This document shows positions 18,713-55,870 of a DNA stretch of 64,000 nt, piece after piece. The stretch comes from Corallococcus exiguus (GTDB taxonomy: Bacteria; Myxococcota; Myxococcia; Myxococcales; Myxococcaceae): the NCBI RefSeq assembly GCF_012985275.1, contig NZ_JABEKY010000003.1. One strand, written 5' to 3'. The translations under genes and the position numbers were made by a program. The number at the start of each line of letters is the position of its first letter. The stretch's first letter is position 1. A model generated the notes under the pieces. It was not told the origin of the DNA, searched no databases, and saw only the letters and a program-made list of their open reading frames with translations.

Positions 18713-19768
18713 ATGCCGATGAAGACCACCGGATACGCGGCGCATTCCGCGGATGCGCCTCTTTCTCCCTATACCTTCGAACGCCGCGAGCTCCGGCACA
18801 ACGACATCGCGATGGAGGTCCTCTATTGCGGCATCTGCCATACGGACCTGCATATGGCGCGCAACGACTGGGGCGCGACCCGGTACCCGTTCGTTCCCGG
18901 TCACGAGTTTGTTGGACGTGTCATCGCCGTTGGCTCGGACGTTTCACGCCACAAGATGGGCGACGCCGTGGCGGTGGGATGCATGCTCGACAGCTGCCAG
19001 CGCTGCGACCAGTGCCGCAAGGGCGAAGAGCAGCTCTGTCGCGAGGGCCATACCCACACGTACAACGGCATGGACCGGGTGACCGGAGATCCAACCTACG
19101 GGGGCTACTCGAAGTTCATGGTGGTCCGGGAGGAGTTCGCGCTCCGCATGCCGGCCGCGCTCGCCCTTTCGAAGGCGGCGCCGCTGCTCTGTGCTGGCAT
19201 CACGACGTACTCCCCGCTACGGACGTGGGGCGTCGGTCCGGGGAGCCGCGTGGGGGTCATTGGACTGGGGGGGCTTGGCCACATGGCGGTCAAGTTCGCC
19301 GTCGCAATGGGCGCCGAAGTCACCGTGCTGAGCCGCAGCGCCGCCAAGGAAGCGGACGCCCTCGCGCTCGGTGCGGATCGCCTGTTGGTGTCGACGGATG
19401 CCAAGGCGATGGCGAAAGCAGGCTCAAGCCTCGATCTCATCATCGACACGGTGCCGACGAAGCACGAGCTCCTCCCCTACCTGCCGCTCCTGGATATCGA
19501 CGGAACGCTCGTCATCGTGGGTCAGGTCGGGCCACTGGCCGAGACGAGCTCGGTGCCACTTCTCTTCGGCCGTCGCCGCATCGCGGGCTCGCCCATCGGC
19601 GGTCTCGCCGAGACCCAGGAGATGCTCGATTTCTGCAGCCGGAAGCAGGTGCTTCCAGATTGCGAGCTGATTCGCATCGATCAGGTGAACGAGGCCTACG
19701 AGCGGCTCGGGCAAGCAGACGTTCGGTACCGCTTCGTCATCGACATGGCCTCGTTGCCACAGCCGTGA
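18713..19768 (+). CDS. zinc-dependent alcohol dehydrogenase (cinnamyl alcohol dehydrogenase / YahK-like, NADP-dependent)
   Basis: The motifs are CGICHTDLH, FVPGHEFVGRV, the structural-zinc Cys cluster CQRCDQCRKGEEQLC, and the Rossmann GVIGLGGLGHMAVKFA. Confidence 0.9.
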   Translation: MPMKTTGYAAHSADAPLSPYTFERRELRHNDIAMEVLYCGICHTDLHMARNDWGATRYPFVPGHEFVGRVIAVGSDVSRHKMGDAVAVGCMLDSCQRCDQCRKGEEQLCREGHTHTYNGMDRVTGDPTYGGYSKFMVVREEFALRMPAALALSKAAPLLCAGITTYSPLRTWGVGPGSRVGVIGLGGLGHMAVKFAVAMGAEVTVLSRSAAKEADALALGADRLLVSTDAKAMAKAGSSLDLIIDTVPTKHELLPYLPLLDIDGTLVIVGQVGPLAETSSVPLLFGRRRIAGSPIGGLAETQEMLDFCSRKQVLPDCELIRIDQVNEAYERLGQADVRYRFVIDMASLPQP

Positions 19769-19791
19769 AGTCACCCAAGGAATCCAACATC

Positions 19792-22093
<2,302 letters not shown>

Positions 22094-22216
22094 AGTGTCC
22101 AAGAACTCCTCCAGCGAAGCGGTTCCGTCTTGGCTCGATCCCCGGCGTTTGTTCGAATGCCTTCCTGTCAGCGGGCCAGGATGCTCTGACCCGGTGGCCC
22201 CCACCCCGGAGGAAGC

Positions 22217-23401: not shown

Positions 23402-26400
23402 CTACCGGCGCGCCTTGCGAGCCGGCTTGCCCCGAGTGGTCTTCTTCGCCGCGGCCTTCTTCGCGGCGGTCTTCTTCCCCGCCGCCTTCTTCGCCGAAGC
23501 CTTCTTCGCAGGAGCCTTCTTCACCGCCGCCTTCTTCGCGGCCGTCTTCTTGCCCGCTGCCTTCTTCGCGGAAGCCTTCTTCGCAGGGGCCTTCTTCGCG
23601 GCGGACTTCTTGCTCGCCGCCTTCTTCGCGGAGGCCTTCTTCACCGCCGCCTTCTTCGCGGAGGCCTTCTTCACAGGGGCCTTCTTCACCGCCGCCTTCT
23701 TCGCGGAGGCCTTCTTCGTCGGAGCCTTCTTCACCGGCTTCGCCGAGCCCTCCGGCGCCTCGCGGGCGTCGCCGCCCTCCTTGGCCCGGTCGAACTCGCG
23801 CATCGCGTCGTCCACGAGGCCCATGCTCATGTACGCGACGCCCAGGTCGTGGTGGTCCGCCGGGGACAGCCCTTCCTTGGTGCCCTCGCGCAGCTTGTTG
23901 AGGGCCTCCTCCACCATCGGATCCGCGGCCTGGGGCGCCTGCGAAGCCTCTTCGGCTTCAATCTCGCCCTTCAGCTCCTGGCCCAGGTTCACCGCTTCGT
24001 CCTTCGGTGCCTGCGGCTCGGTGGCCACCTTCACCTGGGCGCTCTCAGGCGCGAGGGACTCGGACGCTTCAGGGGCTTCGGACTCGGTGCTGCCCGGCAA
24101 CGGCGACGGCGTCTCGGACATGGGGGGCTCCGGGGCGATGCGCTGGAGGTGATCCTGCAGCTTGACCGTGCGCTCCTGGAGCTCCGCCACCCGGGCCTTG
24201 TCCTTCTCCACCACGTCCGGCGGAGCACGGGCCACGAAGTTCGGGTTGTCCAGCTTGCGCTGCAAACCGGTGAGTTCCTGCTCGGAGCGGACGATCTCCT
24301 TCTTCAGGCGGTCGCGCTCCGCGTCCAGGTCCACCAGGCCCGCCAGGGGCACGTAGATTTCCAGGTTGCCGCTCACGAACGCCGCCGCCTGCGGAGGCTT
24401 GGCGCCCGGGGGGCCCACCACCACCTCGGACAGGCCCGCGAGCGGCATCAGGTACGCGCGCCAACGCTCCAACAGCTCGCGCGTCGTCGCGTCCGGGCTC
24501 TGCACCACCGCCTTCACCTTGGCGGACGGCGGCAGGTTGCTCTCGCCGCGCAGCGTGCGCAGGCCCTCGATGGCCGCGATGACCGGCGCCATCTCGCCTT
24601 CCGCGGCCGCGTCCACCCACGCCGCCTCCGGCACCGGGTACGCCGCGATGCAGATGCTCTCCGTGGGCCGGGACATCGGCAGCTTCTGCCAGATCTCCTC
24701 GGTGATGAACGGCATGAACGGGTGCATCAGCCGCAGGATGCGGTCCAGGCACGTCACCAGCACCGCGCGCGTGGTGTCCTTGGCCTCCGCGTCGTCGCCG
24801 TACAACGAGCCCTTCGCCAGCTCGATGTACCAATCGCAGAACTCCGCCCACAGGAACTGGTACAGCGTGGACGCGGCCTCCGCGAAGCCGAACGCCTCCA
24901 GCGACGCGCGCGTCTCCTCGGTGGCCTTCTGCAGGCGGGAGAGGATCCACCGGTCCGCCAGCGTCAGCTTGCGGCCCTCCAGCGGCGTCTTGTCCAGGCT
25001 GAAGTCGCCCATGTTCATCAGGGCGAAGCGGCTGGCGTTCCACAGCTTGTTGCAGAACGCCTTGTAGCCACCCAGGCGGTCCATCGACAGCTTGATGTCA
25101 CGGCCCTGCTGCGTGAGCGACGCCAACGTGAAGCGCAGCGCGTCCGCGCCGTGCGCGGGCATGCCCTGCGGGAAGCGGTTGCGCAAGGACGGCTGCAGCG
25201 ACTCCGCCTTCGCGCCGAGGATGACGTCCAGGGGATCGATGACGTTCCCCTTCGTCTTGGACATCTTCTCGCCCTTCTCGTCGCGCACCATCGCGTGCAG
25301 GTACACGGTGCGGAAGGGCACGTCGTTCATGAAATGCAGGCCCATCATCATCATCCGGGCGACCCAGAAGAAGATGATGTCGTGGCCCGTCTCCATCACG
25401 GACGTCGGGTAGAAGGTCTGGAGGTCCGCCGTCTGCTTCGGCCAGCCCAGCGTGGAGAACGGCCACAGCGCGGACGAGAACCAGGTGTCCAGCACGTCCG
25501 GATCCTGCGTCAGCTCCTTGCCGCCGCACTTCGGGCAGGACTCCGGCGCCGTGCGCGACACGATGACGTCCGCCGTGTCCTTCGAGCGCTCTTCCGCCGG
25601 GGTGCACGCCGCGCAGTACCACGCCGGAATCTGGTGGCCCCACCACAGCTGGCGGCTCACGCACCAGTCGTGGATGTTGTTCATCCAGTGGAAGTACGTG
25701 TTCGTCCACGACTCGGGGACGAACTTGGTGCGGCCCTCCTCCACGGCCTGGATGGCCGGCTTCGCCAGGGGTTCGATCTTGATGAACCACTGCGGCGACA
25801 GGCGCGGCTCCACCACCGTGGTGCAGCGCTGGCAGGTGCCCACGTTCAGCTTGTGCGGCTCCTCCTTCTCCAGCAGGCCCAGCTCCGTCAGGTCCGCCAG
25901 CACCTGCGTGCGCGCCTCCCGGCTCTCCAGGCCCGCGTACTTGCCGGTGTCCTTCGTCATCCGCGCCGCTTCGTCCAGGATGGACAGCATCGGCAGCTTG
26001 TGGCGCAGGCCCGTCTGGTAGTCGTTGAAGTCGTGCGCGGGCGTGACCTTCACCACGCCGGTGCCGAACTCCATGTTCACCAGCTCGCCGTCCGCGATGA
26101 CCGGAATCTCACGGTCGGTGAGCGGCAGCGCCACGCGCTTGCCGATGAGGTCCTGGTAGCGCGGATCCTCCGGGTGCACGGCGACGGCCGTGTCGCCCAG
26201 CAGCGTCTCCGGGCGCGTCGTCGCCACGGTGAGGAAGCGCTCCGTGCCCTTCACCGGGTAGCGGATGTGCCAGAGCGAGCCGTTCTTCTCCTCGTGCTCC
26301 ACTTCCAGGTCGGAGAGGGCCGTGCGGCAGGACGGGCACCAGTTGATCAGCTTCTGGGCCCGGTACATCAGGCCCTCTTCGTACAGCCGGACGAACACCT

Positions 26401-26881
26401 CGCGCACCGCGGCCGAGGACTGCTCGTCCATGGTGAAGCGCTCGCGGCTCCAGTCCAGGGACGCGCCCAGGTAGCGGTGCTGCTCACCGATGCGCGCGCC
26501 GAACTTGCCCTTCCACGTCCAGACGCGCTCGAGGAACGCCTCGCGGCCCAGGTCGTGGCGGCTCTTGCCCTCCGTCTTCTTGAGCTCCTTCTCCACCACC
26601 ATCTGCGTGGCGATGCCCGCGTGGTCCGTGCCGGGCAGCCAGAGCGCGTTGAAGCCGCTCATCCGCTTCCAGCGCGTGAGGATGTCCTGGATGGTCGCGG
26701 TGAGCGCGTGGCCGATGTGCAGGCTGCCCGTCACGTTGGGCGGCGGCAGCACGATGCTGAACGGCGGCTTGGAGGAAGGGGCTTCGGCGCGGAAGTAGTC
26801 GCGCTCCAGCCAGTGGTTGTACCACCGCGCCTCCACTTCGGAGGGCTCGTAGGCCTTGGACAGTTCAGTCGTGTCAGTCAT
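23402..26881 (-). CDS. valS: valyl-tRNA synthetase with a C-terminal extension of about 150 aa carrying histone-H1-like AKKA/KKAP repeats
   Basis: The N-terminus [17 protein letters not shown], the HIGH motif ([15 protein letters not shown]), KMSKTKGN (KMSKS), editing and anticodon-binding domains and a coiled-coil C-terminus are all present. It ends with ...[32 protein letters not shown]...GKPARKARR. Confidence 0.9.
23417..23755. repeat. degenerate tandem repeat of about 12-15 bp (GCCTTCTTCGCGG-type) encoding the Lys/Ala tail of ValRS
   Basis: Repeated GCCGCCTTCTTCGC(G/C) units were read on the plus strand. They are responsible for the artefactual FFAAAFF ORF 23415-24152. Confidence 0.75.
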
Positions 26882-26934
26882 TGCAAGCGGCCGGCCCCCG
26901 ACGGGGCCGGCGGGGAATCAGAGGGGACTGCGAA

Positions 26935-28197
26935 TCAATGCTGGGTCTCGCGGTCCTTGATGAGCCGCTCCAGCTCTTCCCGGATGATGGTCTCCGCCAG
27001 CTGCGGAACGACCTCCCAGGCAATCTTCTCGATGACCTCGCGGGACGCCTTCGACAGCGCCTCGCGCAGCAGCGCCTCTCCGCCATCCGCGGCCGGACGG
27101 GCGCGCGCGGGCGGAGTCGCCGGCGAGGGGCCGCCGATGTCCAGGGAGATCTCCTCCGCGCCGCTGGGCTCGGGCAGCGAGTCCTCGATGCGGATGCTCT
27201 CCGTGCGGGCCTGCGCCGCGGGCGGGGCGGCCGGAGCGCCCAGCCCGAACGGATCCCGGGCACGGGCGGCCGGAGGCACCGCGGCGGGCGGGGGCGCGGA
27301 CGGCAGCGGCGCGGCGCCCGGAGGACGCGGGAAGCCGCCCGGGATGTTCGGGGCGCCAGGGCCCGGAGGACGCGCGGCCATGCCCGGAGGCGGCGCACCC
27401 GGAGGACGCGCGCCCGGAGGCACGGCACCCGGAGGAGGACGCGCACCCGGCGGCATGGCGCCCGGAGGCGGCGCACCCGGAGGACGCGCGCCCATGCCCG
27501 GAGGCGGCGCACCCGGCGGAGGACGTGCACCCGGCGGCATGGCGCCCGGAGGCGGCGCACCCGGAGGACGCGCGCCCGGAGGAACAGCGCCCGGCAGCGG
27601 ACGCGCCGCACCCGGAGGAGGAGGCACACCAGCGCCCGGAGGACGCGCGCCCGGAGGCACGGCACCCGGAGGAGGACGCGCACCCGGCGGCATGGCGCCC
27701 GGAGGCGGCGCACCCGCGGGACGCGCACCCGGCGGCACGGCGGCGGCGGGCGGCGCGCTGACTGGAGCGCTCGGGGCGGAGGTCTGGGGCAGAATGCGCG
27801 TCGCGGCGGACGCGGGCATCGTGTTGGACTTCTGGCCCACCAGCGCCTTCACCTTGTCGAGGAGGATCTGGCTCTCGAAGGGCTTGGTGATGTGGTCATC
27901 CGCCCGGGCGGCCTTCGCGCGGTTCTCGTCGAACGCCTCGAAGGTGCCGGCGAGCAGCAGCACCGGGATGGCCTGCGTGGAGGGGTCGCCCTTGAGCGCC
28001 TCGCAGACCTCGTAGCCGCTCTTGCCCGGCATCATCACGTCGGCGAGCACCACGTCCGGACGCAGCTCGCGCGTGCGGGAGATGGCGTCCAGCCCGTTGT
28101 CCACCGCGGTCACCTGGAAGTCTTCCGTCGCGAAGATCATCCCGATCACCTTGCGGATGGTGAGCGAGTCGTCGGCGATCAGTAGATTCTTGGGCAT
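26935..28197 (-). CDS. romR: RomR-like polarity response regulator: N-terminal receiver, long proline-rich linker, conserved acidic C-terminal tail
   Basis: The receiver begins MPKNLLIADDSLTIRKV...DVVLADVMMPGKSGYEV...ITKPF, with an internal Met chosen as the start to give about 420 aa. A 250-aa PPGARPPGAPPPGAMPPGARPP repeat region follows. The C-terminus is EISLDIGGPSP...EVIEKIAWEVVPQLAETIIREELERLIKD. The domain order matches my recollection of M. xanthus RomR; no alignment was done. Confidence 0.65.
   Translation of the reverse strand: MPKNLLIADDSLTIRKVIGMIFATEDFQVTAVDNGLDAISRTRELRPDVVLADVMMPGKSGYEVCEALKGDPSTQAIPVLLLAGTFEAFDENRAKAARADDHITKPFESQILLDKVKALVGQKSNTMPASAATRILPQTSAPSAPVSAPPAAAVPPGARPAGAPPPGAMPPGARPPPGAVPPGARPPGAGVPPPPGAARPLPGAVPPGARPPGAPPPGAMPPGARPPPGAPPPGMGARPPGAPPPGAMPPGARPPPGAVPPGARPPGAPPPGMAARPPGPGAPNIPGGFPRPPGAAPLPSAPPPAAVPPAARARDPFGLGAPAAPPAAQARTESIRIEDSLPEPSGAEEISLDIGGPSPATPPARARPAADGGEALLREALSKASREVIEKIAWEVVPQLAETIIREELERLIKDRETQH
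27250..27750. repeat. proline-codon-rich tandem repeats (about 27-45 bp units) encoding the PPGARPPGAxPPG linker of the RomR-like protein
   Basis: Repeated GGCGCACCCGGAGGACGCGCGCCCGGAGG-like units were read directly. They are the source of several antisense artefact ORFs (26874-27728, 26881-28185, 27525-27761). Confidence 0.8.
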
Positions 28198-28314: not shown

Positions 28315-29181
28315 TCAAGAAAACATGCGCTGCAGGTCCAGTAACATCACCGGATCCGGCAGCCCCGGCGCCCGGAACGTTCCGGGAAGCTCGGCCGGCT
28401 TGAACTTCTGCAGCACACCCAGCACCCGGTTGGCCGCCAGCCCCACGTTCCGCCCCGCCATTTCCGTGAGGACGAACAACTCCTCCGCCTGGGCCGGCGC
28501 ACCCAGCAGCGCTGGAATCGAACAGATGGGCCATAGCGCCTGCGCGTGGGGATAGACGCCCGCCACCGGCCCGCTCTGCACCGGGAGGACGCTGAACGCC
28601 TCGCCCCGGGGTACCACCTGGGAGACGCAACCCAGCGGGACGCCGAACAGCACCCCCTGGGACTCCAGCACCAGCGCCCGCTCAGGGGGCTCGTCCGCAT
28701 AGTGCACGGGCCGGGGCTCTGGCGGGGTCGCCCGGGGGCCCGCCCGGTGCGGCAGCGCCTCCACGATGAGCTCCAGGTACAGCCGGTCCTTGTGCAGCAC
28801 CGCGCCCCGGCTCAGCGGCGCCAGCGAGTCCGCCAGTCCCGGAGGCAGCAGGAAGAACGGATCCCTCGCGACGTCCGCGACCTCCACCACTGCGCGCACC
28901 CGCACCGCGAGCGTGGGGCTGACGTCCAGGACCACCACCATGCCCGGCACTTCCTCAGGCAGGCCGCCGAGCAACGCGGCGAGGTCCTTCACTTCCAGTA
29001 CGCCGCGCAGACTCGCGCCGCGAGCGCCCGGCATCGCGACCTCGATGACGGAGGTGGCCTCCACCGCGTAGCGCGTCTCTCCGGCCTCCACCAGCAGGCA
29101 GAGCCGCCGTCCGCTTTCAAAGGGCACGGCCCGGGACCCTAGCAGCCTTCCAGCGTTGGGTGCTAAGCCCTGAACAGTCAT
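28315..29181 (-). CDS. CheW-like coupling protein with two tandem CheW-like domains
   Basis: Two segments resemble CheW domains (RLCLLVEAGETRYAVEATSVIEVA...MVVVLDVSPT... and ALVLESQGVLFGVPLGCVSQVVP...VGLAANRVLGVL). Choosing Met15 as the start makes its ATG (29179-29181) overlap the divergent GGDEF gene's ATG (29180-29182). The track ORF starts at 29223. Confidence 0.65.
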   Translation of the reverse strand: MTVQGLAPNAGRLLGSRAVPFESGRRLCLLVEAGETRYAVEATSVIEVAMPGARGASLRGVLEVKDLAALLGGLPEEVPGMVVVLDVSPTLAVRVRAVVEVADVARDPFFLLPPGLADSLAPLSRGAVLHKDRLYLELIVEALPHRAGPRATPPEPRPVHYADEPPERALVLESQGVLFGVPLGCVSQVVPRGEAFSVLPVQSGPVAGVYPHAQALWPICSIPALLGAPAQAEELFVLTEMAGRNVGLAANRVLGVLQKFKPAELPGTFRAPGLPDPVMLLDLQRMFS

Positions 29182-30568
29182 GGCGCGACTGCTCCTCGTC
29201 GACGACGAAAAGATCGCCCGCAATCTCTACGGCGACTACCTCACGGCCGCGGGACACCTGGTCACGGCGGTGCCCACCGTGGCGGACGCGAAGGCCGCCC
29301 TCTCCGCGGCGCGGTTCGACGCGGTGGTGACGGACCTCATCCTCCCCGGCGGCGACGGCATGGAGGTGCTTCGCCACGTGCGCGAGCGCTACCCCGGCGT
29401 GGAGGTGCTGGTCATCACCGGCCTGGACAAGGTGGCCCCCGCGGTGCGCGCCATCAAGAGCGGCGCGGCGGAGTACCTGGTCAAGCCCGTGGCGCCGGAG
29501 GCCCTGGAGCACGCGCTGCGCCGCGCGCTCACCACGCGCGACCTGATGCGTGAGAACGCGTCCCTGCGCCAGCACGTCGCGCTGCTGGAGGCGGGCCAGC
29601 GCATCGCCACCACGCTCGACCGCGAGCGGCTGTCCACGGCCGCGTCCGACGCGCTGGAGTCCATGGCCAACGCCTCCGCGGTGATGCTCCTGGAGCGGGA
29701 CCCTGGCGGCACGGGCTTCCGCTCGCACGGCATGCGCGGGCTGCCGGTGGACCTGCACGAGGCGCTCGTCCCGCTGCTCATCGAGCGGCTTTCGGGCACG
29801 CGCACGCAGGTGGAGCTCGACGGACTTCAAGTTCCCTGGCCGCGCACCCTCTCCTTCCCCGCCGTGGACGGCGAGCTGGTGCTGGGCCACGCGGTGCTCT
29901 TCCACGACAACGCGCCCGCGGAGCACCACGCGGAGACCGTGGGCTTCCTCGTGCGCAACTGGGCGCTGGCCCTGCGCAACCTGGGCCGCTTCGCCGCCGT
30001 GGAGGACCTGGCCTACGTCGATGATCTCACCCGCCTGTTCAACACGCGCTACCTGCACCTGGTGCTGGACCGCGAGGTGAACGAGGCCCTCCAGACGGAG
30101 CGCCCCTTCTCCCTGCTGTTCCTGGACCTGGACCGCTTCAAGGCCATCAACGACACGCACGGGCACCTGGTGGGCTCGCGGGTGCTGGTGGAGGCCGCGC
30201 GCGTGCTCAAGGGCTGCGTGCGCGACCCGGACGTGGTGGCGCGCTTCGGCGGCGACGAGTACGTGGTGCTCCTGCGCGGCACGGACTCCGGCGGGGCCCT
30301 CAAGGTCGCCGAGCGCATCCGCCGCACCATGGAGACCCATCAGTTCCTGGGCCGCGAGGGGCTGGCGCTCAAGCTCACCACCTGCATCGGCGTGGCCAGC
30401 TTCCCGGAGCATGCCCAGGACAAGGACCACCTGCTGGACCTGTCCGACCGGGCCATGTACCGGGGCAAGCGCGGCACCCGGAACGTCGTCTACATGGCGG
30501 CGCAGGACCTGGAAGCCACCCCGGCCGAGCGCCGTCAGAATCCCCCGCCCCCGCAGGGCCAGGGCTGA
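29180..30568 (+). CDS. response regulator receiver + GAF-like middle + GGDEF diguanylate cyclase
   Basis: The receiver is MARLLLVDDEKIARN...VTDLILPGGDGMEV...YLVKP. The GGDEF domain has RLFNTRYLH...LLFLDLDRFKAINDTHGH...RFGGDEYVVLL, with an intact GGDEY active site. Confidence 0.85.
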   Translation: MARLLLVDDEKIARNLYGDYLTAAGHLVTAVPTVADAKAALSAARFDAVVTDLILPGGDGMEVLRHVRERYPGVEVLVITGLDKVAPAVRAIKSGAAEYLVKPVAPEALEHALRRALTTRDLMRENASLRQHVALLEAGQRIATTLDRERLSTAASDALESMANASAVMLLERDPGGTGFRSHGMRGLPVDLHEALVPLLIERLSGTRTQVELDGLQVPWPRTLSFPAVDGELVLGHAVLFHDNAPAEHHAETVGFLVRNWALALRNLGRFAAVEDLAYVDDLTRLFNTRYLHLVLDREVNEALQTERPFSLLFLDLDRFKAINDTHGHLVGSRVLVEAARVLKGCVRDPDVVARFGGDEYVVLLRGTDSGGALKVAERIRRTMETHQFLGREGLALKLTTCIGVASFPEHAQDKDHLLDLSDRAMYRGKRGTRNVVYMAAQDLEATPAERRQNPPPPQGQG

Positions 30569-30582
30569 ACGCCGGACGCGCG

Positions 30583-30972
30583 CTACTTGCGCAGGCTGCC
30601 CACGGTGAGGTGCTTGGGCAGCTCCACTTCCGCGGGCACGCCGCCGCCGCCCTCGCCCACCGCCTCCACCTCTTCGTGAGACGCGCCGGTGGTGATGAGG
30701 CGGTACTTCTGCGACGCCTCGCGGTCGTGCTGGGCCTGCTCCGGATCCAACCGCGCGATGAGCTGCCAGAAGAGGGCCGCGTGCTCGCGCTCCTCGTCCA
30801 TGACGTGCCGCAGGATGGCCTTCGCCTCCTCGTTGTCCGTCGCGTCCAGGTGCGCGGCGTAGAGGTTGATGGCGTCCAGCTCCGCCTCGATGTTGAGCCG
30901 GATGGAGCGGGCCAGTTCGGAGTCCGTCAGCTTCCGGGGCACCAGCGAGTGGAACGGGTTCGTCTGCGGCAT
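30583..30972 (-). CDS. encC: ferritin-like encapsulin cargo protein (EncC-like) with a C-terminal targeting peptide
   Basis: It is the 129-aa C-terminal part of track ORF 30583-32100, starting at MPQTNPFHSL. The ferritin-like diiron ligands are IEAELDAINLYAAH and DEEREHAALF (E...ExxH x2). There is a Gly-rich linker GEGGGGVPAEVELPKH and a terminal LTVGSLRK, matching encapsulin cargo-loading peptides. The gene-symbol assignment relies on recollection of M. xanthus EncC. Confidence 0.7.
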   Translation of the reverse strand: MPQTNPFHSLVPRKLTDSELARSIRLNIEAELDAINLYAAHLDATDNEEAKAILRHVMDEEREHAALFWQLIARLDPEQAQHDREASQKYRLITTGASHEEVEAVGEGGGGVPAEVELPKHLTVGSLRK

Positions 30973-31128
30973 GAGGACCTCAGCGACAGGGAGGGTTTCC
31001 AGCAAGCGAGCGGGCAACGACGTTCCGTCAGGCCGGGCTGGAGGACGTGCGCGAGCATCCGTTCGGTCGCGAGCGCGGTCAACCGAATCCCGCTGGGGGT
31101 GCGTTGCGCGTGAACACCTGCCTCCGCC

Positions 31129-32658
31129 ATGCTCCCGTGCATGGAGACCCCCTCGCCGCTCGCGCAGCTGCTCCAGGCCCTGGACGCGGGGGACCTGGAG
31201 AAGGCACGGGTCGCGGCCGTGGCGCTGCAACGCGCCAACGCCCATACCCATCAGGTCGCCGCGGAGGTCCTCCATGAGCTGCGTCAGCCCCTCCTGGGCG
31301 CGAAGGCCTACGCCCAGCTGCTGGCCGAGGAAGGAGGCTCCAGCGGCCCGCTGAAGCTGCTGCTCGCGCAGGTGGAGCGGATGGAGCAGATTGTCTCCGA
31401 CTTCATCCGCCTGGCCAGCGAGCGGCCGGCCCCGCAGCAGCGGCTGTCCCTGGCCGCGCCCATCTGGGCGGCGGCGAAGGTGTTCAGCGTCAACCCGGAC
31501 TCGGCGCGCATCTCGCTGGAGGTGGAGGCCCCCGAGGACCTCACCATCCAGGGCAACGCGCGGCTGATTGAGCAGCTCACGCTCAACCTGCTCAACAACG
31601 CCCGCGACGCCATGTCCGGCCGGGGCCGCGTGAAGGTGACGCTCACGCGCGATGGCGCCTCCGCGGCCCTCTACGTTTCCGACTGGGGACCGGGCATCCC
31701 GGACGAGCTGAAGACGCGCATCTTCGAGCCCTACGTCTCCGCCAGCAAACGCGGCACGGGCCTGGGGCTCGCCGTCTGTCGTCGCATCGCGCAGGAGCAC
31801 CACGCGCAGGTTGCCCTGGTGCCGCCCACGACGCTGCGCGAGGTGCCGCCCCCGGCCACGGTGTTCCGCGTGCTCTTCCCGCCCACGGACGCGCCGCGCC
31901 CGCCGCGCAAGCGCCTGCTGGTGGTGGACGACGAGGGCATCATCCGGATGGTCTTCAAGGACCTGATGGACAAGGAGTGCGAAGTCATTGAAGCGGCCAC
32001 GGGCGAGGCCGCGCTCGAAATCCTCCGCTCGTCGCGCGTGGACCTCATCGTCACGGACAAGAACCTGCCCGGAATCTCCGGCCTGGAGCTGGCCCAGCAC
32101 GCGAGGAAGCTGGACCCCGCGTCGCGCGTCATCCTGATGACGGGCTACCCCTCGCTGGTGACGACGCAGCAGGCGCTGCAGCTGGGCCTGGTGGACTACC
32201 TGCTCAAGCCCTTCGACGACATCCGACAGGTGCGCGCGCTGCTGCGGCAGGCGCTGTACACGCCGGCCGCGCCGCCTGTCCCCGCCCCCAGCGCTGGCGT
32301 GCGCCGGGTGGACGTGCTGGAGGACAACCCGGCCACCGCGCGGCTGATTTCAGAGGCGCTGACGCTGCTGGGCCTGGAGGCGCGCGTCGTCGCGGGCGCG
32401 GAGGTGGCCACCATGGATCCGCCCGTGGGCGTGGTGGTGTCTTGGGACTTCGCGCCGGCCTACGGCAAGAAGGCGCTGGAGCTGGCCCGGGCCCTGAGCC
32501 AGGGCGCGCCCTTCGTCGTCCTGGCCGAGCACCTCACCATGGACACGGCGCTGGCGTCGCTGCGCGCCGGGGCCGCCGCGTGCCTGCCCAAGCTGCTCTC
32601 CGACACCACTGCGCTCAGCCGCGAGCTGGGCCTGGCCTTCAAGAAGACCGCTTCCTGA
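31129..32658 (+). CDS. hybrid sensor histidine kinase / response regulator (HisKA-HATPase + receiver + C-terminal receiver-like domain)
   Basis: The H-box is EVLHELRQPLLGAKAYAQLL. The N/G boxes are LNLLNNARDAM, SDWGPGIP and GTGLGLAVCRRI. The receiver is RLLVVDDEGIIR...VTDKNLPGISGLEL...LLKPF. A second degenerate receiver-like region follows. Confidence 0.8.
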   Translation: MLPCMETPSPLAQLLQALDAGDLEKARVAAVALQRANAHTHQVAAEVLHELRQPLLGAKAYAQLLAEEGGSSGPLKLLLAQVERMEQIVSDFIRLASERPAPQQRLSLAAPIWAAAKVFSVNPDSARISLEVEAPEDLTIQGNARLIEQLTLNLLNNARDAMSGRGRVKVTLTRDGASAALYVSDWGPGIPDELKTRIFEPYVSASKRGTGLGLAVCRRIAQEHHAQVALVPPTTLREVPPPATVFRVLFPPTDAPRPPRKRLLVVDDEGIIRMVFKDLMDKECEVIEAATGEAALEILRSSRVDLIVTDKNLPGISGLELAQHARKLDPASRVILMTGYPSLVTTQQALQLGLVDYLLKPFDDIRQVRALLRQALYTPAAPPVPAPSAGVRRVDVLEDNPATARLISEALTLLGLEARVVAGAEVATMDPPVGVVVSWDFAPAYGKKALELARALSQGAPFVVLAEHLTMDTALASLRAGAAACLPKLLSDTTALSRELGLAFKKTAS

Positions 32659-32743: not shown

Positions 32744-34435
<1,692 letters not shown>

Positions 34436-34566: not shown

Positions 34567-34923
34567 CTACTCCGCGAAGCGCACGAGGTTGAGCAGCTGC
34601 CCCATGTCCAGGGGCTTCTGCAGGGTGATGGCGACGCCCTTGCGCAGGCCCCGGTCGGAGATGTTGGCGTCCGTGCTGGCGGTCATCATCAGGACGGAGA
34701 TGCGCTGGAAGCGGGGATCCGCCTTCAGCATCTCCGTGAAGTGGATGCCGTCCAGGTGGGGCATCAGGTAGTCGGTGATGACCAGCCCCACGGGGTGACG
34801 CTCCATGATGTCCAGGGCCTGGAGCGCGTCCGACGCCGAGAACACGGTGTAGCCATGCATCTCCAGGTAGCGAGAGAGCATGGTGCACAGCTCGTAATCG
34901 TCGTCGACGACCAGGATGTTCAC
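34567..34923 (-). CDS. single-domain response regulator (CheY-like receiver)
   Basis: The receiver motifs are MNILVVDDDYELCTML...VITDYLMPHLDGIHF...TAS...KPLDM. The protein is 118 aa. Confidence 0.85.
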   Translation of the reverse strand: MNILVVDDDYELCTMLSRYLEMHGYTVFSASDALQALDIMERHPVGLVITDYLMPHLDGIHFTEMLKADPRFQRISVLMMTASTDANISDRGLRKGVAITLQKPLDMGQLLNLVRFAE

Positions 34924-40002: not shown

Positions 40003-40101
40003 GGTAGGGCCTCCGGACCTGGTGGCCGGCCCGGTCTTCAAAACCGGTGAGGGGCTGCGAGAGCAGTCCCTGGCGAGTTCGATTCCCGTGCCCTACCGCC
40101 A
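40003..40101 (+). tRNA. selC: tRNA with anticodon UCA and long variable arm: tRNA-Sec (selC)-like
   Basis: There is an 8-bp acceptor stem (GGTAGGGC / GCCCTACC), a D arm CCGG-ACCTGGTGG-CCGG, an anticodon stem CCGGT/ACCGG with loop cTTCAaa (U33, anticodon TCA, A37), an 8-bp variable-arm hairpin GGGGCTGC-GAGA-GCAGTCCC, a T loop TTCGATT, a discriminator G and an encoded CCA. The T-stem has one A-C mismatch. The 3' 58 nt are duplicated 6 kb downstream, typical of tRNA genes used as integration sites. Confidence 0.6.
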
Positions 40102-40104
40102 ATA
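40047..40104 (+). repeat. attL-like 58-bp direct repeat (3' half of the tRNA-Sec gene); second copy at 46076-46133
   Basis: GTGAGGGGCTGCGAGAGCAGTCCCTGGCGAGTTCGATTCCCGTGCCCTACCGCCAATA is identical at both positions by direct reading. Confidence 0.85.
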
Positions 40105-40212
40105 CTTCCGAGGGGTTACGCCCCCGTACTGCCACCTTGGCAGTACCGGACTCGTCCACACGCGTCCGCATGAGTCTACCCGACGTCGTTAGCGTGTCGT
40201 TAGCGGACGGCG

Positions 40213-41127
40213 CTATGGGAACGTCACATTCCCGAGTGTAACTGTGCGGGGGCCGGCCTCCTCCCATAGCTTCAGGGCGAAGGTTGCTCGGGATGACGCC
40301 AGAGTGGATTCGGCCTCCACAACGACAAGGCCTGAAACGCCGGGCGTGATGGGCTCCCTCTGCCACACTCGCAAAACCTTCAGCTCCTCACCTGTCTTGC
40401 TCTTAAGCGTCGCGCCTATTGCCGACCACGGCGGGGCACCAGCTTTCACGGAGAGCCAGACCTCCACCGCCACCCGCCAAGTAGATCGGTAGGCCTGGAG
40501 CTTGGTTGCCTCGACGCCACTGCCAGACACCTGGGAGATTGCCTTGCTCAAGATGCGTACTGACACGCCCTCAGCATCCATGGCCCCTGTAGAAATGAGC
40601 CCTGTCAGCCCACCGGGCGCAGCACGCTCAGCAATCAGTCGGGCATTCTCTTCTTGGTAACGCAACGCAACCGCGCGAGCTTCCCGCGCTTCCTGCTGAT
40701 ACGTCTCTATTGTCCTCTTCTCGCGATACACCTCGACTAGAGGCTCTGCTCTCGCGGGATGCACCTTCAGCAGGAACGACGCGTTCGCAGGCGCTGCACC
40801 ATCTCGGAAGCGAACCGTCAGAAGAAACCGTTCGCCCGGGGCAACCTTCGATGATGGCATCACACGAATTACGGTTTGCCCTGCATCCAAAATGGAAAAG
40901 GACTCACGGCCCTCTAGCGTCACCGCATCGCGCACAAGCTCAGCGTCGAAGAACAGACCGGTTGAGAGGCCAGGGCTAACAATAATCTCCGGCGCTGCCT
41001 GAACACCTTCCGGCAGCAGCTCAATGCGGCGGATCGCCTGCACTGAAACCGCGGAATCGGCCTCTGCGAGGGCGACTCCACTCCGCAGCACGAACCCCAG
41101 GAGAAGAACCCAGATACGCGAAGACAC
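40213..41127 (-). CDS. DUF2381 / TIGR02268-like myxobacterial paralogous-family protein (secreted), immediately downstream of a Ser/Thr kinase
   Basis: It has a signal peptide MSSRIWVLLLGFVLRSGVALA, is 304 aa, and sits directly after a kinase gene, which is the known context of this family in M. xanthus. The family assignment is by recollection of family features, not alignment. Confidence 0.6.
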   Translation of the reverse strand: MSSRIWVLLLGFVLRSGVALAEADSAVSVQAIRRIELLPEGVQAAPEIIVSPGLSTGLFFDAELVRDAVTLEGRESFSILDAGQTVIRVMPSSKVAPGERFLLTVRFRDGAAPANASFLLKVHPARAEPLVEVYREKRTIETYQQEAREARAVALRYQEENARLIAERAAPGGLTGLISTGAMDAEGVSVRILSKAISQVSGSGVEATKLQAYRSTWRVAVEVWLSVKAGAPPWSAIGATLKSKTGEELKVLRVWQREPITPGVSGLVVVEAESTLASSRATFALKLWEEAGPRTVTLGNVTFP

Positions 41128-41153
41128 GCTGCGGTTACTCCTGAGTGGACATG

Positions 41154-43004
41154 CTATTCGAATTCACTAACGGCTCTCACATCAGCAACGGAGAAAATAC
41201 GAGCACGAATCGAAGAGTCATCACCAGCTTCACGTTCCATCCCTTTGACACCCTCTTCACTGAGCAGTTCAAAGCACACCGGGAAGCTATCCCCCTGCGG
41301 AGGCGTAGCCCAGGTGAGCCGGCCATAAACGCGGTCGCTCACGACAGCACGGCCCGACAGCACCGTGTTAGCAGGCATGCCTCCCCATCCACCTAGGAGA
41401 TGAATTTCAATGGGTCCATCTCCCACGGAAACTGTTCTAGGGCGGCCTTTGACAAAAACAGCAGGGAGCCTGCGTCCTATCTCAACTTCACGTTTCGCCA
41501 TGGCCTTCACTGACCCTGCAGGGCACGGCTCAGGAGGCGGAGCCGGACGCACCTGCGGACCAGGACAACCCATGAGCGCTGAGCAAGCCGCCACCGTGCC
41601 GACAGCACGGGCCATGACGCTCATGCCCTTCTTCGCGGGCTTCGAGGGGAGCTGAAGGGGCTGCGTCTCTTTGGGCTGCATCGTCACGGTGGCTGAAACC
41701 TCCTGGAGCGTCGCAGGGAGAGCGACGGCCGCAGCGGTGGCCTCCGGCCCGGTAGGAGCTGCGGCGCGGTCAGCTTGAGTCGACTTGCCAGAGGGCGCTA
41801 CTTCCTGACGGGTGGGGACAGGCCGCGCGACGCGCGACGTCCCGAGGCCCCACGCTGCCCCCGTCAGGACGAGCACCACTGCGAGCGCCACCCAGGCAAG
41901 GAAGGCCCCACGCTTCTCGGGCGACACACGCACGGTCGTCGCGGGAGGTGGCATCTCGCTCGCCGCAGCATCCGCGTCCACCGCTGGCATCTGTTTCCGG
42001 GGAATGCGTTTGCCTCGACGAGGGCGGTGCCGGGGTTGGTGCCGCCACTGCTCGAAGCTGTCGATGTCCTCCCCCTCTGTCGTCGCGGAGTCCTCGGCAT
42101 ACGCGTCGCAGAGCGGCACGTCCCACGTCGCGTCCGCGCCGCGCAGCGCCTGCTCCAGCGACTCGCAGAGAGTCTGGGCGCTGGGCGTGCGCGCCTCGGG
42201 GGTCTTCTCCAGCAACCGCAGGCACACGTCGCTCAGCGCCCGAGGCACCCGCTCGTTCTCCTCGTGCGGCGGCGTGGGCGCGCTGGAGAGAATCGCCTCC
42301 GTCAAGCTGGCACCGTCCTCGCCATCGAAGGGGAAGCGCCCCGTCAGCAGCCGGTAGGAGACGAGGCCCAGCGCCCACAAGTCGTCCGCCGGCCCCGCTG
42401 TGTAACGAGCGTCCGGCGCCTCGCGGTGGGCCCGCAGGAAGCGCCACGCCTCCGGGGAGCGGTAGTCCACCGTCCCGGGTGGGAGGATGTCCGCCGTCAG
42501 CTCGCGCGCGCCCGTGTAGTCGCCGATGCCGAAGTCCACCAGCTTGGCCAGGCCGTCCGAGGCGCGCACCATGACGTTGGCCTCCTTCACGTCCCGGTGC
42601 ACCACCCCGTCCCCATGGGCAGCCGCGAGCGCCCGCGCCACGCCCAGCAGCGCGCGCGCCGCCTGCCTCGCCGTGGGGTTCTCCGCGTCGGCCCAGGCGT
42701 CCAGCTGACGCCCTTCCACGTACTCCATGACGATGACGATGAATTGCGGCTGGGGCACCGGCCAGTAGCCATGGCCCAGAATCCGCACCACGTTGGGGTG
42801 ATGCAGGCGAGTGAGGATGGAGACTTCGCGCTCCGCCCGCTCCCCCACGCGAGGCACGTGCAGCAGCTTCAGGGCGAAGCGCTGACCCTCGCAATGCGCG
42901 AGATACACCGTGCCGAAGCCGCCCTGCCCCAGCTGGCGATCCACCGTGTAGCCCAGCACCTGGGCCCCAGGAGACAGCACGGCCGGAGGTGGCCCCCGCA
43001 TCAT
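41154..43004 (-). CDS. Ser/Thr protein kinase (Hanks-type) with a TM segment and a C-terminal extracytoplasmic domain
   Basis: The motifs are LGQGGFGTVY, ALKLL, HRDVKEANVMV, DFGI and SPE. The TM is AFLAWVALAVVLVLTGAAWGL. A C-terminal domain of about 200 aa is unassigned. Confidence 0.85.
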   Translation of the reverse strand: MMRGPPPAVLSPGAQVLGYTVDRQLGQGGFGTVYLAHCEGQRFALKLLHVPRVGERAEREVSILTRLHHPNVVRILGHGYWPVPQPQFIVIVMEYVEGRQLDAWADAENPTARQAARALLGVARALAAAHGDGVVHRDVKEANVMVRASDGLAKLVDFGIGDYTGARELTADILPPGTVDYRSPEAWRFLRAHREAPDARYTAGPADDLWALGLVSYRLLTGRFPFDGEDGASLTEAILSSAPTPPHEENERVPRALSDVCLRLLEKTPEARTPSAQTLCESLEQALRGADATWDVPLCDAYAEDSATTEGEDIDSFEQWRHQPRHRPRRGKRIPRKQMPAVDADAAASEMPPPATTVRVSPEKRGAFLAWVALAVVLVLTGAAWGLGTSRVARPVPTRQEVAPSGKSTQADRAAAPTGPEATAAAVALPATLQEVSATVTMQPKETQPLQLPSKPAKKGMSVMARAVGTVAACSALMGCPGPQVRPAPPPEPCPAGSVKAMAKREVEIGRRLPAVFVKGRPRTVSVGDGPIEIHLLGGWGGMPANTVLSGRAVVSDRVYGRLTWATPPQGDSFPVCFELLSEEGVKGMEREAGDDSSIRARIFSVADVRAVSEFE

Positions 43005-43317
43005 GGCGACCTTCTTTCGGGCTCCCAGGCCTCTCGCATGCGGCGTCCTCCCAGCGGGGCGCGGACCCTACCAGAAGCGTGAGAAGCCCGGGAATCCCTC
43101 CCTCTGGCTGCCCCCTCCAGAAAGGACTCATGGAGTCTATCCAACTCCACAGGACCTCCAGCATTCACCCTTGGCCGACCTTTGTAGGGCACGAAGCCCA
43201 AGCCCAAGGAAGAGGACGCTCCAGAGTTGCGGCGTCTCCTCCACCTCGCGCGCAAGCTGGACGCGGAGGACCTCGCGGCCCTCCTCCACGTCGCCTCGGC
43301 CCTGGCGCGCTGAAGCC

Positions 43318-44487
43318 CTACTCCCGCTTCAAGCCCTCCAGTTCGTGGGACTCCAACCCCTCGGGGAAGAAGCCCTCCTCACCGAACTCCACCTCGTCGC
43401 GAAGGACGCTGCCCTCCGCCAGCACCTGGGCCCACTCCGCTGCGGCTTCCTGCCGGCCGTAGCCCGGGTGGCGCCTCGCCAGGGCGACGCGCATCGCATC
43501 ACGCATGTCCGCCGCCGTGGCGAATCGCTGCTCGGGTTTGGCGCGCAGCGCGACATGCAGCATCGCCTTCACGTCCGGGGAGAGTGAGTCCACGGCCTCC
43601 TCGACGTCCTCCGGCCCGAAGCTGGCCAGCAGCACCTGCATTTGCGTCAGCGGCAGGGAGGGGATGATTTCCGGCTGGAGGTGGACCATCCCCTTGAGCG
43701 GGCCCGGCACGTCCTCCACGTCGAAGAGGTGCTTTCCGGTGAAGAGTTCCACCAGCAGCACGCCCAGGCCGAAGACGTCGGAACGCGGCGTCAATGGTTT
43801 ACGTGTCAGGTACTCCGGCGAGGCGTAGGCCACGTCTCCACGCACGAGGCTGGCGGGTGACTCCTCGCGCCCCACCACCAGCGAGTACGCCGCGCCGAAG
43901 TTCGTCAGCTTCACCTCGCCTTGCGTCCCTACGTAGACATGCCGGGGGTTGACGTCGCGGTGGATGACGCCCAGCGACTTGCCGTCCACGTCCGTCAGCG
44001 TGTGCGCGTGGTGCAAGGCCTCCGCGATTTCCGCGCCGACATAGAGGGCGAAGGACTCGGAGACGGGCCGGCCACGCGCCACGCCCGCACTCACCAGCGT
44101 CTCCAGCGAGGGACCGTCCACGTACTCCATGACGGCGTGCAGGGCGCCTTTGTGCACCTTGCGGTGGAACACCGTGGCGATGGCCGGGTGGCGCAGACGG
44201 AAGGCCAGCTGAATCTCCTCCCCCAGCCGCGTGCGCTGCATGAAGGTGGAGGGGTTCGCCAGCCGCCGCACGAAGCAGTAACCGGGCAGCTTGTTGCCGC
44301 GCTCCGTGAAGCGCTGGGCCATCATCAGCACCTCGCCCGTCTCCATCCGCACCAGTTCGCGGACGGCCTCGTAGCGGATGCCGTCGATGGTGAAGAGGTG
44401 CAGCGGGCGCTCAGGCGTCGGCGGGAGCTGCCTGCGGCGCGCGGAGGCTTCGGTGCGCGCCAGGTTATCGGTTGTCGTGTCGGGCAT
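43318..44487 (-). CDS. Ser/Thr kinase-like protein, possibly a pseudokinase
   Basis: The motifs HRDVNPRHV, NFG and SPEY are present, but there is no recognisable GxGxxG loop. The protein is 389 aa. Confidence 0.7.
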   Translation of the reverse strand: MPDTTTDNLARTEASARRRQLPPTPERPLHLFTIDGIRYEAVRELVRMETGEVLMMAQRFTERGNKLPGYCFVRRLANPSTFMQRTRLGEEIQLAFRLRHPAIATVFHRKVHKGALHAVMEYVDGPSLETLVSAGVARGRPVSESFALYVGAEIAEALHHAHTLTDVDGKSLGVIHRDVNPRHVYVGTQGEVKLTNFGAAYSLVVGREESPASLVRGDVAYASPEYLTRKPLTPRSDVFGLGVLLVELFTGKHLFDVEDVPGPLKGMVHLQPEIIPSLPLTQMQVLLASFGPEDVEEAVDSLSPDVKAMLHVALRAKPEQRFATAADMRDAMRVALARRHPGYGRQEAAAEWAQVLAEGSVLRDEVEFGEEGFFPEGLESHELEGLKRE

Positions 44488-44489
44488 GG

Positions 44490-44535
44490 CTCCTCGGGAG
44501 GCGGGAGAAGTGGCGCGGCGGCGCCTCCCGAGGAG
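44490..44535. promoter_or_regulatory. perfect 11-bp inverted repeat CTCCTCGGGAG-N24-CTCCCGAGGAG abutting the start codon of the kinase-like gene
   Basis: Read from the sequence. It lies in the 5' leader and RBS region of the minus-strand gene, so it could sequester the RBS or act as a terminator for upstream transcription. Confidence 0.35.
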
Positions 44536-44914
44536 TTTGGGTCCAATTGACTTTTAAAGTCCATAATCTTGGACTCTAAAGGGCAATCACCTCACCTGGG
44601 CGAGGGCGAAGCCTGCCCCGGCGCCGAGCACCACCGCCATCACCACAACCAGGACAGGGACAGAGCGCGGCTGTTGGCGTAGCACCTCGTTCTCCGCCTG
44701 GTGTAACGGACCGGGGTAGTGGATCGCAGGCGGGTCACCCAAGCAGTTCGTAGCGGGGTCGGCCAAGCGGATCGCCCCCGGGTCGGCCAAGCGGACCTTG
44801 AGTCGGAGCAGTCGGGACGGCGGTCCGTTCCCCCGGAAGACAGTTGGAAGAAACACGGCTGGGAGGTGGAGTGAGCGCCTACCCGGCCAGGCATCCCGTG
44901 CATCTTCGCGAGTC

Positions 44915-45139
<225 letters not shown>

Positions 45140-45648
45140 CACCTGGCGGAGCCCCTGCCGGACCGGTTTGGCCGAACCCGCGCGGTCCACGCCGTCACGC
45201 TTCCCGGGCTCCTCACGTCCGGACCTCATTGGCCGGACCGAACAGCGACCTGATTAGCCGAGCCTTGACACGAAGGCGGAGCGGGCCACCACGTTTGACG
45301 AACTCCGCGAGGCGGGTGAGCGCTACGGCAAGGTCATGGGCCGCAACGCGGCGCGCGCGTTCGCCATGTTGGCAACGGCCGCCCTTGGGAACACGGCGGC
45401 GGGGCTGGGGTCGAAGGTGCCAATGCTCCCAGGCGCCGCGCAGGCGGCGGTCCAGGCCTCCACAACACCGAGAACCTCATCCCACTGGACAAGAGCCTGC
45501 ACAGCGACGTCAGCGCGTTCTTCTCGTCGATTCGACGCGATATCACCGGCTCGCCATTGACCGTACGGCAATGGTTGAGCACGCAGTCCTACGAGGACCA
45601 ACGTGACTTCGGGCTTCTGGCCATTGAGAACGTCGGAAAGGGGCTCTG

Positions 45649-46002
45649 GTGATGAAGTTGCAGGACCTTGTCGAGCAGTTCGTCGAGGACGTAGTCGCGC
45701 AGAACGAGGCCATCTTCCGGGGAGACGCCAAGACGGGAAACAAGCACGCCAGGAAGTACGGTGCCGCCGTCGATAAGCTCCTGGCCCACGGCAATGCCGG
45801 ACGTGACGCTCTCGCCGTACTGCTCAAGCATGAGCGCATGGACGTGCGCGTGATGGCTGCCGCGCATCTGCTCCGCTATCGGACGGCCGAAGCCAAAGCG
45901 GTCCTGGAGGAAGCGGCCAAGGGGCAGGGGCTGGTCCCGTTCGGAGCGCAGCAGGCATTGAAACGCTGGGAAGAAGGAACCTGGGCGCTCGATCCTGAGT
46001 AG
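45649..46002 (+). CDS. small hypothetical protein, predominantly helical (immunity-protein-like; family not recognised)
   Basis: It is 117 aa with coding-like composition. A GTG/ATG start overlaps the stop of an upstream frameshifted ORF (45336-45650), which suggests a degraded two-gene module. Confidence 0.4.
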   Translation: MMKLQDLVEQFVEDVVAQNEAIFRGDAKTGNKHARKYGAAVDKLLAHGNAGRDALAVLLKHERMDVRVMAAAHLLRYRTAEAKAVLEEAAKGQGLVPFGAQQALKRWEEGTWALDPE

Positions 46003-46075
46003 TTCTGATCGTGGCTGAGGAGGCCATGGCGCGCGCGGGCATCTCCGGCGCGCAGTTCACGGCTTTCACCGGTCC

Positions 46076-46133
46076 GTGAGGGGCTGCGAGAGCAGTCCCT
46101 GGCGAGTTCGATTCCCGTGCCCTACCGCCAATA
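46076..46133 (+). repeat. attR-like 58-bp direct repeat (partial tRNA-Sec 3' end, no 5' half)
   Basis: This is the second identical copy of the 58-mer. The upstream sequence does not form the 5' half of a tRNA. Confidence 0.85.
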
Positions 46134-46260
46134 TCAACGCGAGACAGATTGACGTCTCAAAATGAGACAGCGGCGGCTGGCAACCGGCCGTGAATCCGGG
46201 AAGCGTGGCGCACGATATCTGCATACAGGGCGTGTCCTCCGTTGAGGACTCCGGCCTGCC

Positions 46261-46812: not shown

Positions 46813-46814
46813 TC

Positions 46815-54686: not shown

Positions 54687-55271
<585 letters not shown>

Positions 55272-55316
55272 CGGGTGCGTCCTTTCCGGGTTCAGTGAGA
55301 TTCGGCTACTCGTTCG

Positions 55317-55817: not shown

Positions 55818-55870
55818 GTGCCGGTCTCTACCACCCGCCCCGCCACCCGGTCAGCACTTCCTCCAATCCA

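Follow-up and report, generated by a model that had tools for sequence, protein, structure and literature searches.

The window analysed here, a 64-kb stretch of Corallococcus DNA, carries in order of coordinates nadC, valS, a RomR-type gene, a CheW-domain gene, a REC-GGDEF response regulator gene (plus strand), encC (minus strand), a hybrid histidine kinase gene (plus), groEL (minus) and a gene for a single-domain REC protein (minus); the features are collected in Table 1. At positions 30583–30972 the first-pass annotation had placed a gene for a 129-aa protein ending in a Gly-rich linker and the peptide LTVGSLRK. The ORF and its translation bear out the gene, and both the linker and the terminal peptide are present in its product, which reads MPQTNPFHSLVPRK...GEGGGGVPAEVELPKHLTVGSLRK, the latter being the C-terminus before the stop codon. 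The neighbours listed in that annotation (a REC-GGDEF regulator, a hybrid kinase, a groEL without groES and a RomR-type protein) were all recovered by Pfam. The active-site motif of the REC-GGDEF neighbour is GGDEY (..RFGGDEYVVLL..), not GGDEF. The valyl-tRNA synthetase has a C-terminal extension of ~110 residues (about 1060–1170) that resembles low-complexity sequence of the histone H1-like HC2/extensin kind and is also found in sister strains.

Table 1. Features of the 64-kb window, in order of coordinates.
Feature	Position	Strand	Basis and remarks
LysM protein with VgrG3-like C-terminal domain	9695–11440	-	181 bits
HmuY-like (haem-binding family) protein	14113–15186	-	
Bacterial major vault protein homologue	15233–17509	-	759 aa; Vault, Vault_2/3/4 repeats, MVP_shoulder; 152 bits
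4.4-kb stretch missing from six close assemblies	17682–22143		GC 0.63–0.66
SDR-type reductase (in the 4.4-kb stretch)	18826–20628	+	
Aldo/keto reductase (in the 4.4-kb stretch)	20628–21494	+	
NmrA-like NAD(P)H-binding protein (in the 4.4-kb stretch)	21494–22090	+	
Valyl-tRNA synthetase (valS)	23405–26917	-	Pfam scan
RomR orthologue	26938–28197	-	Pfam, architecture; 420 aa, REC residues 6–116, Pro-rich middle, acidic tail
REC-GGDEF response regulator (MXAN_4463 position)	29180–30568	+	Pfam; convergent with encC, stop codons 14 bp apart
encC CDS	30583–30972	-	ATG start, ORF and translation; 129 aa plus stop (130 codons)
C-terminal targeting (cargo-loading) peptide LTVGSLRK	30586–30609	-	Residues 122–129; six-frame motif scan, homologue conservation
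Poorly conserved flexible linker, including GEGGGG	30613–30687	-	Residues about 96–120; translation, conservation profile
Ferroxidase-centre ligand segment, one set per chain	30781–30882	-	E31 30880–30882, Y38 30859–30861, E61 30790–30792, H64 30781–30783
Shine-Dalgarno-like GAGG	30978–30981	-	6–9 nt 5' of the encC ATG; direct sequence reading
Candidate encC promoter	31054–31082	-	TTGACC 31077–31082, 17-nt spacer, GATGCT 31054–31059; 24-species footprint, ends 81 nt 5' of the ATG
Conserved non-coding words GCAACGC, GGAWTCCGTTGACC, CGGATGCT	31054–31107	-	24 species
Hybrid histidine kinase HisKA-HATPase_c-REC	31129–32658	+	Pfam; divergent from encC
groEL2-type orphan chaperonin (Cpn60), no adjoining groES	32747–34387	-	Pfam; equivalent to MXAN_4467
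Single-domain response regulator upstream of groEL2	34570–34923	-	Pfam; equivalent to MXAN_4468
End of collinearity with sister strains	40101–40124		
Variable region	about 40100–48000		
DUF2381 protein (in the variable region)	40216–41127	-	
Ser/Thr kinase (in the variable region)	41157–43004	-	
Ser/Thr kinase (in the variable region)	43321–44487	-	
DDE_Tnp_1 transposase (IS; in the variable region)	46833–47882	-	
Fe/Mn superoxide dismutase	54690–55316	-	Adjoins flavin reductase
Flavin reductase	55320–55850	-	
ORF of at least 1890 aa	58328–64000	+	Runs past the window end; sole Pfam match Annexin repeat, residues 1074–1117, 74 bits

Several observations concern other parts of the window. The vault homologue is conserved beside nadC in six other Corallococcus assemblies. 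The 4.4-kb stretch that follows it, a strain-specific oxidoreductase insert with a slightly lower GC content, is missing from six close assemblies, which are 98–99.5% identical to the window on both of its flanks. Past the end of collinearity with the sister strains, the genes differ by strain (GmrSD, DUF2381, phage integrase). The long ORF at the window end contains an annexin repeat, and annexin domains are uncommon in bacteria. The pair of superoxide dismutase and flavin reductase genes, together with the HmuY-like gene, forms a theme of oxidative stress and iron 16–24 kb away from encC, but no link to encC is evident. No other type VI secretion genes accompany the gene for the LysM/VgrG3-like protein among the window ORFs scanned.

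In a search of all PDB chains, the closest match of the window protein was M. xanthus EncC (7S8T, E = 1.8e-64); the alignment takes in all of residues 1–129, and 106 of 129 residues are identical (82% over the full length). Further matches, all more distant, were the EncFtn proteins of Pyrococcus, Nitrosomonas and Rhodospirillum, and EncB. The protein scores above the cutoff of the curated NCBIfam model NF058679 (EncB_fam; 111.9 bits vs. 90), named [quoted passage not shown] with residues 1–127 covering all 117 profile positions, and above that of Pfam PF22277 EncFtn-like (36.6 bits vs. 27). It stays below the thresholds of the older, narrower TIGR04535 (77.8 vs. 125) and of the EncB “exception” model (28.3 vs. 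210), as is expected because the protein is EncC and not EncB. Full-length high identity and a conserved gene neighbourhood place it in the orthologous group of EncC (MXAN_4464), and, judged from its sequence, the window gene is a direct orthologue of M. xanthus EncC. The first-pass annotation had cited EncB and EncC as precedents and proposed an alignment to both; it had missed that the gene is EncC itself, at the MXAN_4464 position. Databases list the identical 129-aa sequence under Corallococcus (sp. AB004 and “MULTISPECIES Corallococcus”), and it is encoded in six NCBI assemblies, which show 98.3–99.5% DNA identity to the window over ~18 kb.

The Corallococcus protein and M. xanthus EncC (MXAN_4464, UniProt Q1D3Y8) are alike in length (129 vs. 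130 aa), in the shared N-terminus MPQTNPFHSLVPRK, in the ferroxidase-centre ligands, in the linker followed by the LTVGSLR(R/K) peptide, in the MXAN_4460 to MXAN_4468 neighbourhood and in the position of the gene apart from encA-encB. They differ in the last residue, Lys in Corallococcus for Arg in M. xanthus, and in the linker, which is Gly-rich in Corallococcus (GEGGGGVPAEVELP) and reads GKEGAAPSPADVTPE in M. xanthus; furthermore, of the two, M. xanthus EncC is the experimentally characterised one. EncB of M. xanthus (MXAN_3557, PDB 7S5C) and its Corallococcus counterpart share with EncC the EncFtn half-ferritin core and a similar targeting peptide (PLTIGSLRR). However, EncB, at 162 aa, is the longer protein; its linker is Pro-rich, a Gly/Ser tail extends past the peptide, and its gene adjoins encA on the upstream side. 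Only 38 positions match in a global alignment of the window EncC with the Corallococcus EncB-like protein. The prototype encapsulated ferritin, R. rubrum EncFtn (Rru_A0973, PDB 5DA5), belongs to the same two-helix fold family and decamer-forming family, and likewise has a C-terminal localisation sequence and, at the dimer interface, a ferroxidase centre of the E32/Y39/E62/H65 type. Its relationship to the window protein is only a distant one (E = 2e-07; the reported identity to MXAN_4464 is 33%), and it differs in its peptide, SLGIGSLK, and in the position of its gene directly upstream of its own shell gene (PMC11202242).

The first-pass annotation had described two E...ExxH diiron motifs, and this proved to be wrong. 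Each EncC chain has one set, with exactly one ExxH, at residue 61 (E61-R-E-H64), an upstream ligand Glu (E31) and Tyr38, and these four residues (E31, Y38, E61 and H64) are invariant in the 120 homologues, the best cluster representatives, that were used for the conservation analysis. Residues 26–85 of EncC align to residues 27–86 of R. rubrum EncFtn in the PDB-chain search, and with this offset of +1 E31/Y38/E61/H64 stand opposite E32/Y39/E62/H65. The EncFtn proteins have been described as “half-ferritins” with two main helices, in which the di-iron centre is made up of Glu32, Glu62 and His65 (with Tyr39) from two adjacent chains (PMC5012862). The single Glu...Glu-x-x-His set with a Tyr per EncC chain agrees with such a half-ferritin. 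The classical four-helix bundle of ferritin, bacterioferritin or rubrerythrin was rejected because there is one E...ExxH set per chain and not two; the Rubrerythrin match in Pfam (26.0 bits) covers half of the profile (positions 5–69 of 137). A COQ7/demethoxyubiquinone hydroxylase was rejected in view of the single ExxH and of the score of 14.2 bits against the NCBIfam equivalog NF033656, whose cutoff is 180; the Pfam COQ7 match (25.5 bits) spans 58 positions (2–59 of 169). Thus, with the equivalog score far under its threshold and the Pfam matches partial, “demethoxyubiquinone hydroxylase family protein,” the commonest public name of the EncC group (besides “rubrerythrin” and “ferritin”), is a misnomer.

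The core of the protein is followed by a variable Gly/Pro-rich stretch, in which conservation among the 120 homologues dips across residues about 105–119, and then by the targeting peptide. The first-pass annotation had allowed for the case that this motif is not conserved in orthologues; it is kept in about 115 of the 120 homologues, with conservation values of 0.90 for L, 0.93 for T, 0.93 for V, 0.98 for G and 0.87 for the penultimate R128. The window EncC therefore carries a targeting peptide behind a flexible linker. Its final Lys is rare (5% of homologues, vs. Arg in 84%) and represents a conservative variant; EncD lacks the last Arg and yet still loads (PMC11126975). In M. xanthus, the EncC peptide PEKRLTVGSLRR was resolved on the inner face of EncA by cryo-EM (PMC10402063; PMC11126975), and its arginines contact Asp39, Asp214 and Tyr217 of EncA (PMC11126975). 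A six-frame scan of the 64 kb with the degenerate motif [LMF][TS][VIM]G[SNTGA][LFM] gave one occurrence, in encC, two residues before the stop codon, and no second protein with a targeting peptide.

The shell gene itself is absent from the window, as had been noted before: tblastn of M. xanthus EncA (a query 100% identical to PDB 4PT2) against the 64 kb gave a best E of 2.8, and a Pfam scan of about 47 window ORFs returned no match to Linocin_M18 or any other capsid family. A genome without any shell gene, which the first-pass annotation had also considered, is not what the sister assemblies present. The exact EncC is encoded on VEWR01000015.1 of GCA_006376655.1 and on RAWR01000021.1 of GCA_003986945.1, and in both assemblies encB (162 aa, ...PLTIGSLRR...) followed by encA (290 aa, Linocin_M18) lies on another contig (VEWR01000267.1 and RAWR01000008.1, respectively). 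A 290-aa EncA annotated as C. exiguus is encoded on 22 contigs, VEWR01000267.1 and RAWR01000008.1 among them, and EncA is annotated across Corallococcus species; in every encA locus the gene for a 162-aa EncFtn-like EncB with PLTIGSLRR and a Gly/Ser tail lies directly upstream of encA, and downstream lies a gene for a response regulator of the sigma-54 activator type. Corallococcus EncA is identical to M. xanthus EncA at 272 of 287 residues (95%) and retains D39, D214 and Y217. The shell gene of a Family 1 encapsulin is thus at hand in GCA_006376655.1 and GCA_003986945.1, and from these sister strains, which have an identical EncC protein and 98.7–99.5% DNA identity, we infer that encA is also present in the genome of the window strain. 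The longest contig on which either protein is recorded is in both cases 1,290,592 bp, which suggests that encC and encA may lie on a single contig in GCA_003668955.1.

All 66 encC loci lack an encA less than 10 kb from encC; these loci come from a scan of one genome per species in Corallococcus, Myxococcus, Pyxidicoccus, Citreicoccus, Hyalangium, Vitiosangium and Archangium. The same holds for the published layout of M. xanthus, where encA-encB are MXAN_3556/3557, and encC, as MXAN_4464, lies about 900 locus tags from encA (MXAN_3556), with MXAN_2410 at a further site (PMC11126975; PMC11202242; PMC5959871). The “orphan” encC is therefore a known and ordinary arrangement and no surprise.

Because encC converges with the GGDEF gene and diverges from the kinase gene, it forms a monocistronic unit. 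The divergent intergenic region between encC and the kinase gene has 156 bp, and when the upstream regions of 24 species loci (Corallococcus, Myxococcus, Pyxidicoccus, Hyalangium, Archangium and Vitiosangium) were aligned, GTTGAC and GATGCT proved to be present throughout, with other conserved words, GCAACGC and GGAWTCCG, farther upstream. TTGACC and GATGCT with their 17-nt spacer apparently constitute a sigma-70-type promoter of encC, and the conserved words taken together may represent a promoter and an operator for some regulator. A scan of positions 30300–31300 with strict promoter and terminator consensus patterns gave zero matches of either kind, hence the promoter proposal draws only on conservation across species. 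No sigma-54-type element was seen by eye upstream of encC. The conserved words are absent upstream of encB (locus L007), so that no shared co-regulation motif of the two cargo genes was found.

The gene order of the window is identical to that of MXAN_4460 to MXAN_4468 in M. xanthus and is held by M. xanthus AM003 (locus L042) and by most of the 66 loci. In M. xanthus, MXAN4460 is a Val-tRNA synthetase, 4461 is RomR (420 aa; REC, Pro-rich and Glu-rich regions), 4462 is a protein with a pair of CheW domains, and 4463 is a response regulator of the GGDEF type (PMC2034494); MXAN_4464 is EncC (PMC11202242; PMC5959871); and MXAN_4467 is groEL2, which has no groES nearby and lies downstream of the orphan regulator MXAN_4468 (PMC9040617). 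The REC-GGDEF and kinase genes flank encC in 57 of the 66 loci; the corresponding counts are 56 for the CheW gene, 53 for groEL2 and 43 for valS. RomR scored zero, since its Pro-rich region did not pass the coverage filter of the tblastn scan, and this score is not taken to mean that the gene is missing. The kinase gene is missing in more divergent loci. Three divergent Myxococcota MAGs (L062, 8045–10384; L079, 8187–10258; L081, 112–2174) have no hybrid kinase gene, and there groEL2 is immediately followed by encC in the same orientation, with about 80–140 bp between the two genes. This suggests that the ancestral order was REC-groEL2-encC. The most divergent homologues occur in unrelated context, among ATP synthase genes (L077) or cyclase/CBS genes (L068). 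The pattern of signalling neighbours agrees better with an ancestral synteny in decay than with a functional module.

A functional coupling of encC to its surroundings, by which the REC-GGDEF and kinase neighbours would control its expression and the cargo stoichiometry, or GroEL2 would aid the assembly of cargo or shell, appears unlikely to us. It could draw on the frequency with which these genes accompany encC and on the kinase-less divergent lineages with encC directly behind groEL2. However, the whole block from nadC/valS to REC is conserved, which looks like inherited synteny rather than selection on one gene pair, and the context of the most divergent homologues is a different one. In addition, the gene orientations and the promoter-like element of its own argue against an operon of encC with its neighbours, and no motif is shared with the region upstream of encB. 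The suggestion in the first-pass annotation of a regulation of iron storage by the signalling neighbours has in its favour the inherited synteny, which decays in distant lineages, and no more than that. That the placement of encC reflects a dedicated control of cargo supply, separate from shell expression, is in our opinion quite improbable; if it were true, two-component, c-di-GMP or chaperonin pathways would tune the amount of ferroxidase per iron-storage shell in starvation or development.

It is very unlikely that EncC is the cargo of a shell other than EncA, such as a second encapsulin or another compartment. The vault homologue 13 kb away in the window might be put forward as such a compartment, but the peptide is the LTVGSLR motif of the EncC/EncB/EncD type that binds EncA, and Corallococcus EncA retains the residues that contact the peptide. 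No MVP match occurs within 10 kb of encC in the 66 species loci, and the vault gene lies outside the wider conserved block. LTVGSLR-type peptides are not known to have a role in vault loading. That the protein acts free in the cytosol, as the di-iron enzyme or ferritin that the public names and the weak COQ7 and Rubrerythrin matches would make it, has next to no probability, given the partial COQ7 match and the low equivalog score, the single ExxH where a four-helix di-iron enzyme needs two, the conserved C-terminal peptide that would then serve no role, and the purification of the 82%-identical EncC inside native M. xanthus encapsulins, where it made up 52% of the cargo (PMC10402063).

We are thus highly confident that the gene encodes the Corallococcus (C. 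exiguus group) orthologue of M. xanthus EncC, which is the principal ferritin-like cargo in the iron store formed by the EncA encapsulin. The observations made here comprise the gene, its orthology, the conservation of ligands and peptide, the synteny and the encB-encA pair in sister assemblies with identical EncC; among them, the orthology, the conserved peptide and the shell gene support the core of the first-pass reading, a ferritin-like encapsulin cargo loaded in trans. Assembly into decamers, ferroxidase activity and encapsulation have been demonstrated for the orthologue in M. xanthus (PMC11126975; PMC10402063), and in native particles EncC is the main cargo, at 52% (PMC10402063) or about 92 copies (PMC11126975). 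From this 82%-identical orthologue, and from the 95%-identical shell with its conserved contacts, we infer that the Corallococcus EncC probably behaves in the same way.

By analogy, two-helix monomers would pair, with E31, E61 and H64 (and Y38) of two chains building a symmetric di-iron ferroxidase centre, and five such dimers would close into a decameric ring. LTVGSLRK, presented by the disordered Gly-rich linker, is predicted to dock at the lumenal surface of EncA during the assembly of the shell, in hydrophobic pockets and at acidic residues (D39, D214, Y217). Within the T=3 shell, EncC would oxidise Fe2+ arriving via the pores, and Fe3+ would be laid down as a mineral core; such iron storage would guard the cell against Fenton chemistry. 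With encA and the second cargo gene encB located together elsewhere in the genome, and with encC as a monocistronic gene under its own, apparently sigma-70-type promoter, cargo and shell would come together in trans, with the peptide as their sole link.

Work published in 2014–2024 has already described EncC together with its targeting peptide, crystal structure and in-trans loading into EncA, and a curated NCBI family model already captures the window protein, so the gene has little weight as a discovery. Its practical value lies in the correction of the two-motif description, since the active site of a half-ferritin forms only in the dimer, and in the demonstration that the EncC orthologous group commonly goes under a misnomer in public annotation. 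Furthermore, the conserved promoter-like element upstream of encC could serve the study of cargo regulation. Overall, our analysis documents the dispersed layout, with encC apart from encB-encA, and the encC neighbourhood as ancestral across the families Myxococcaceae and Archangiaceae.
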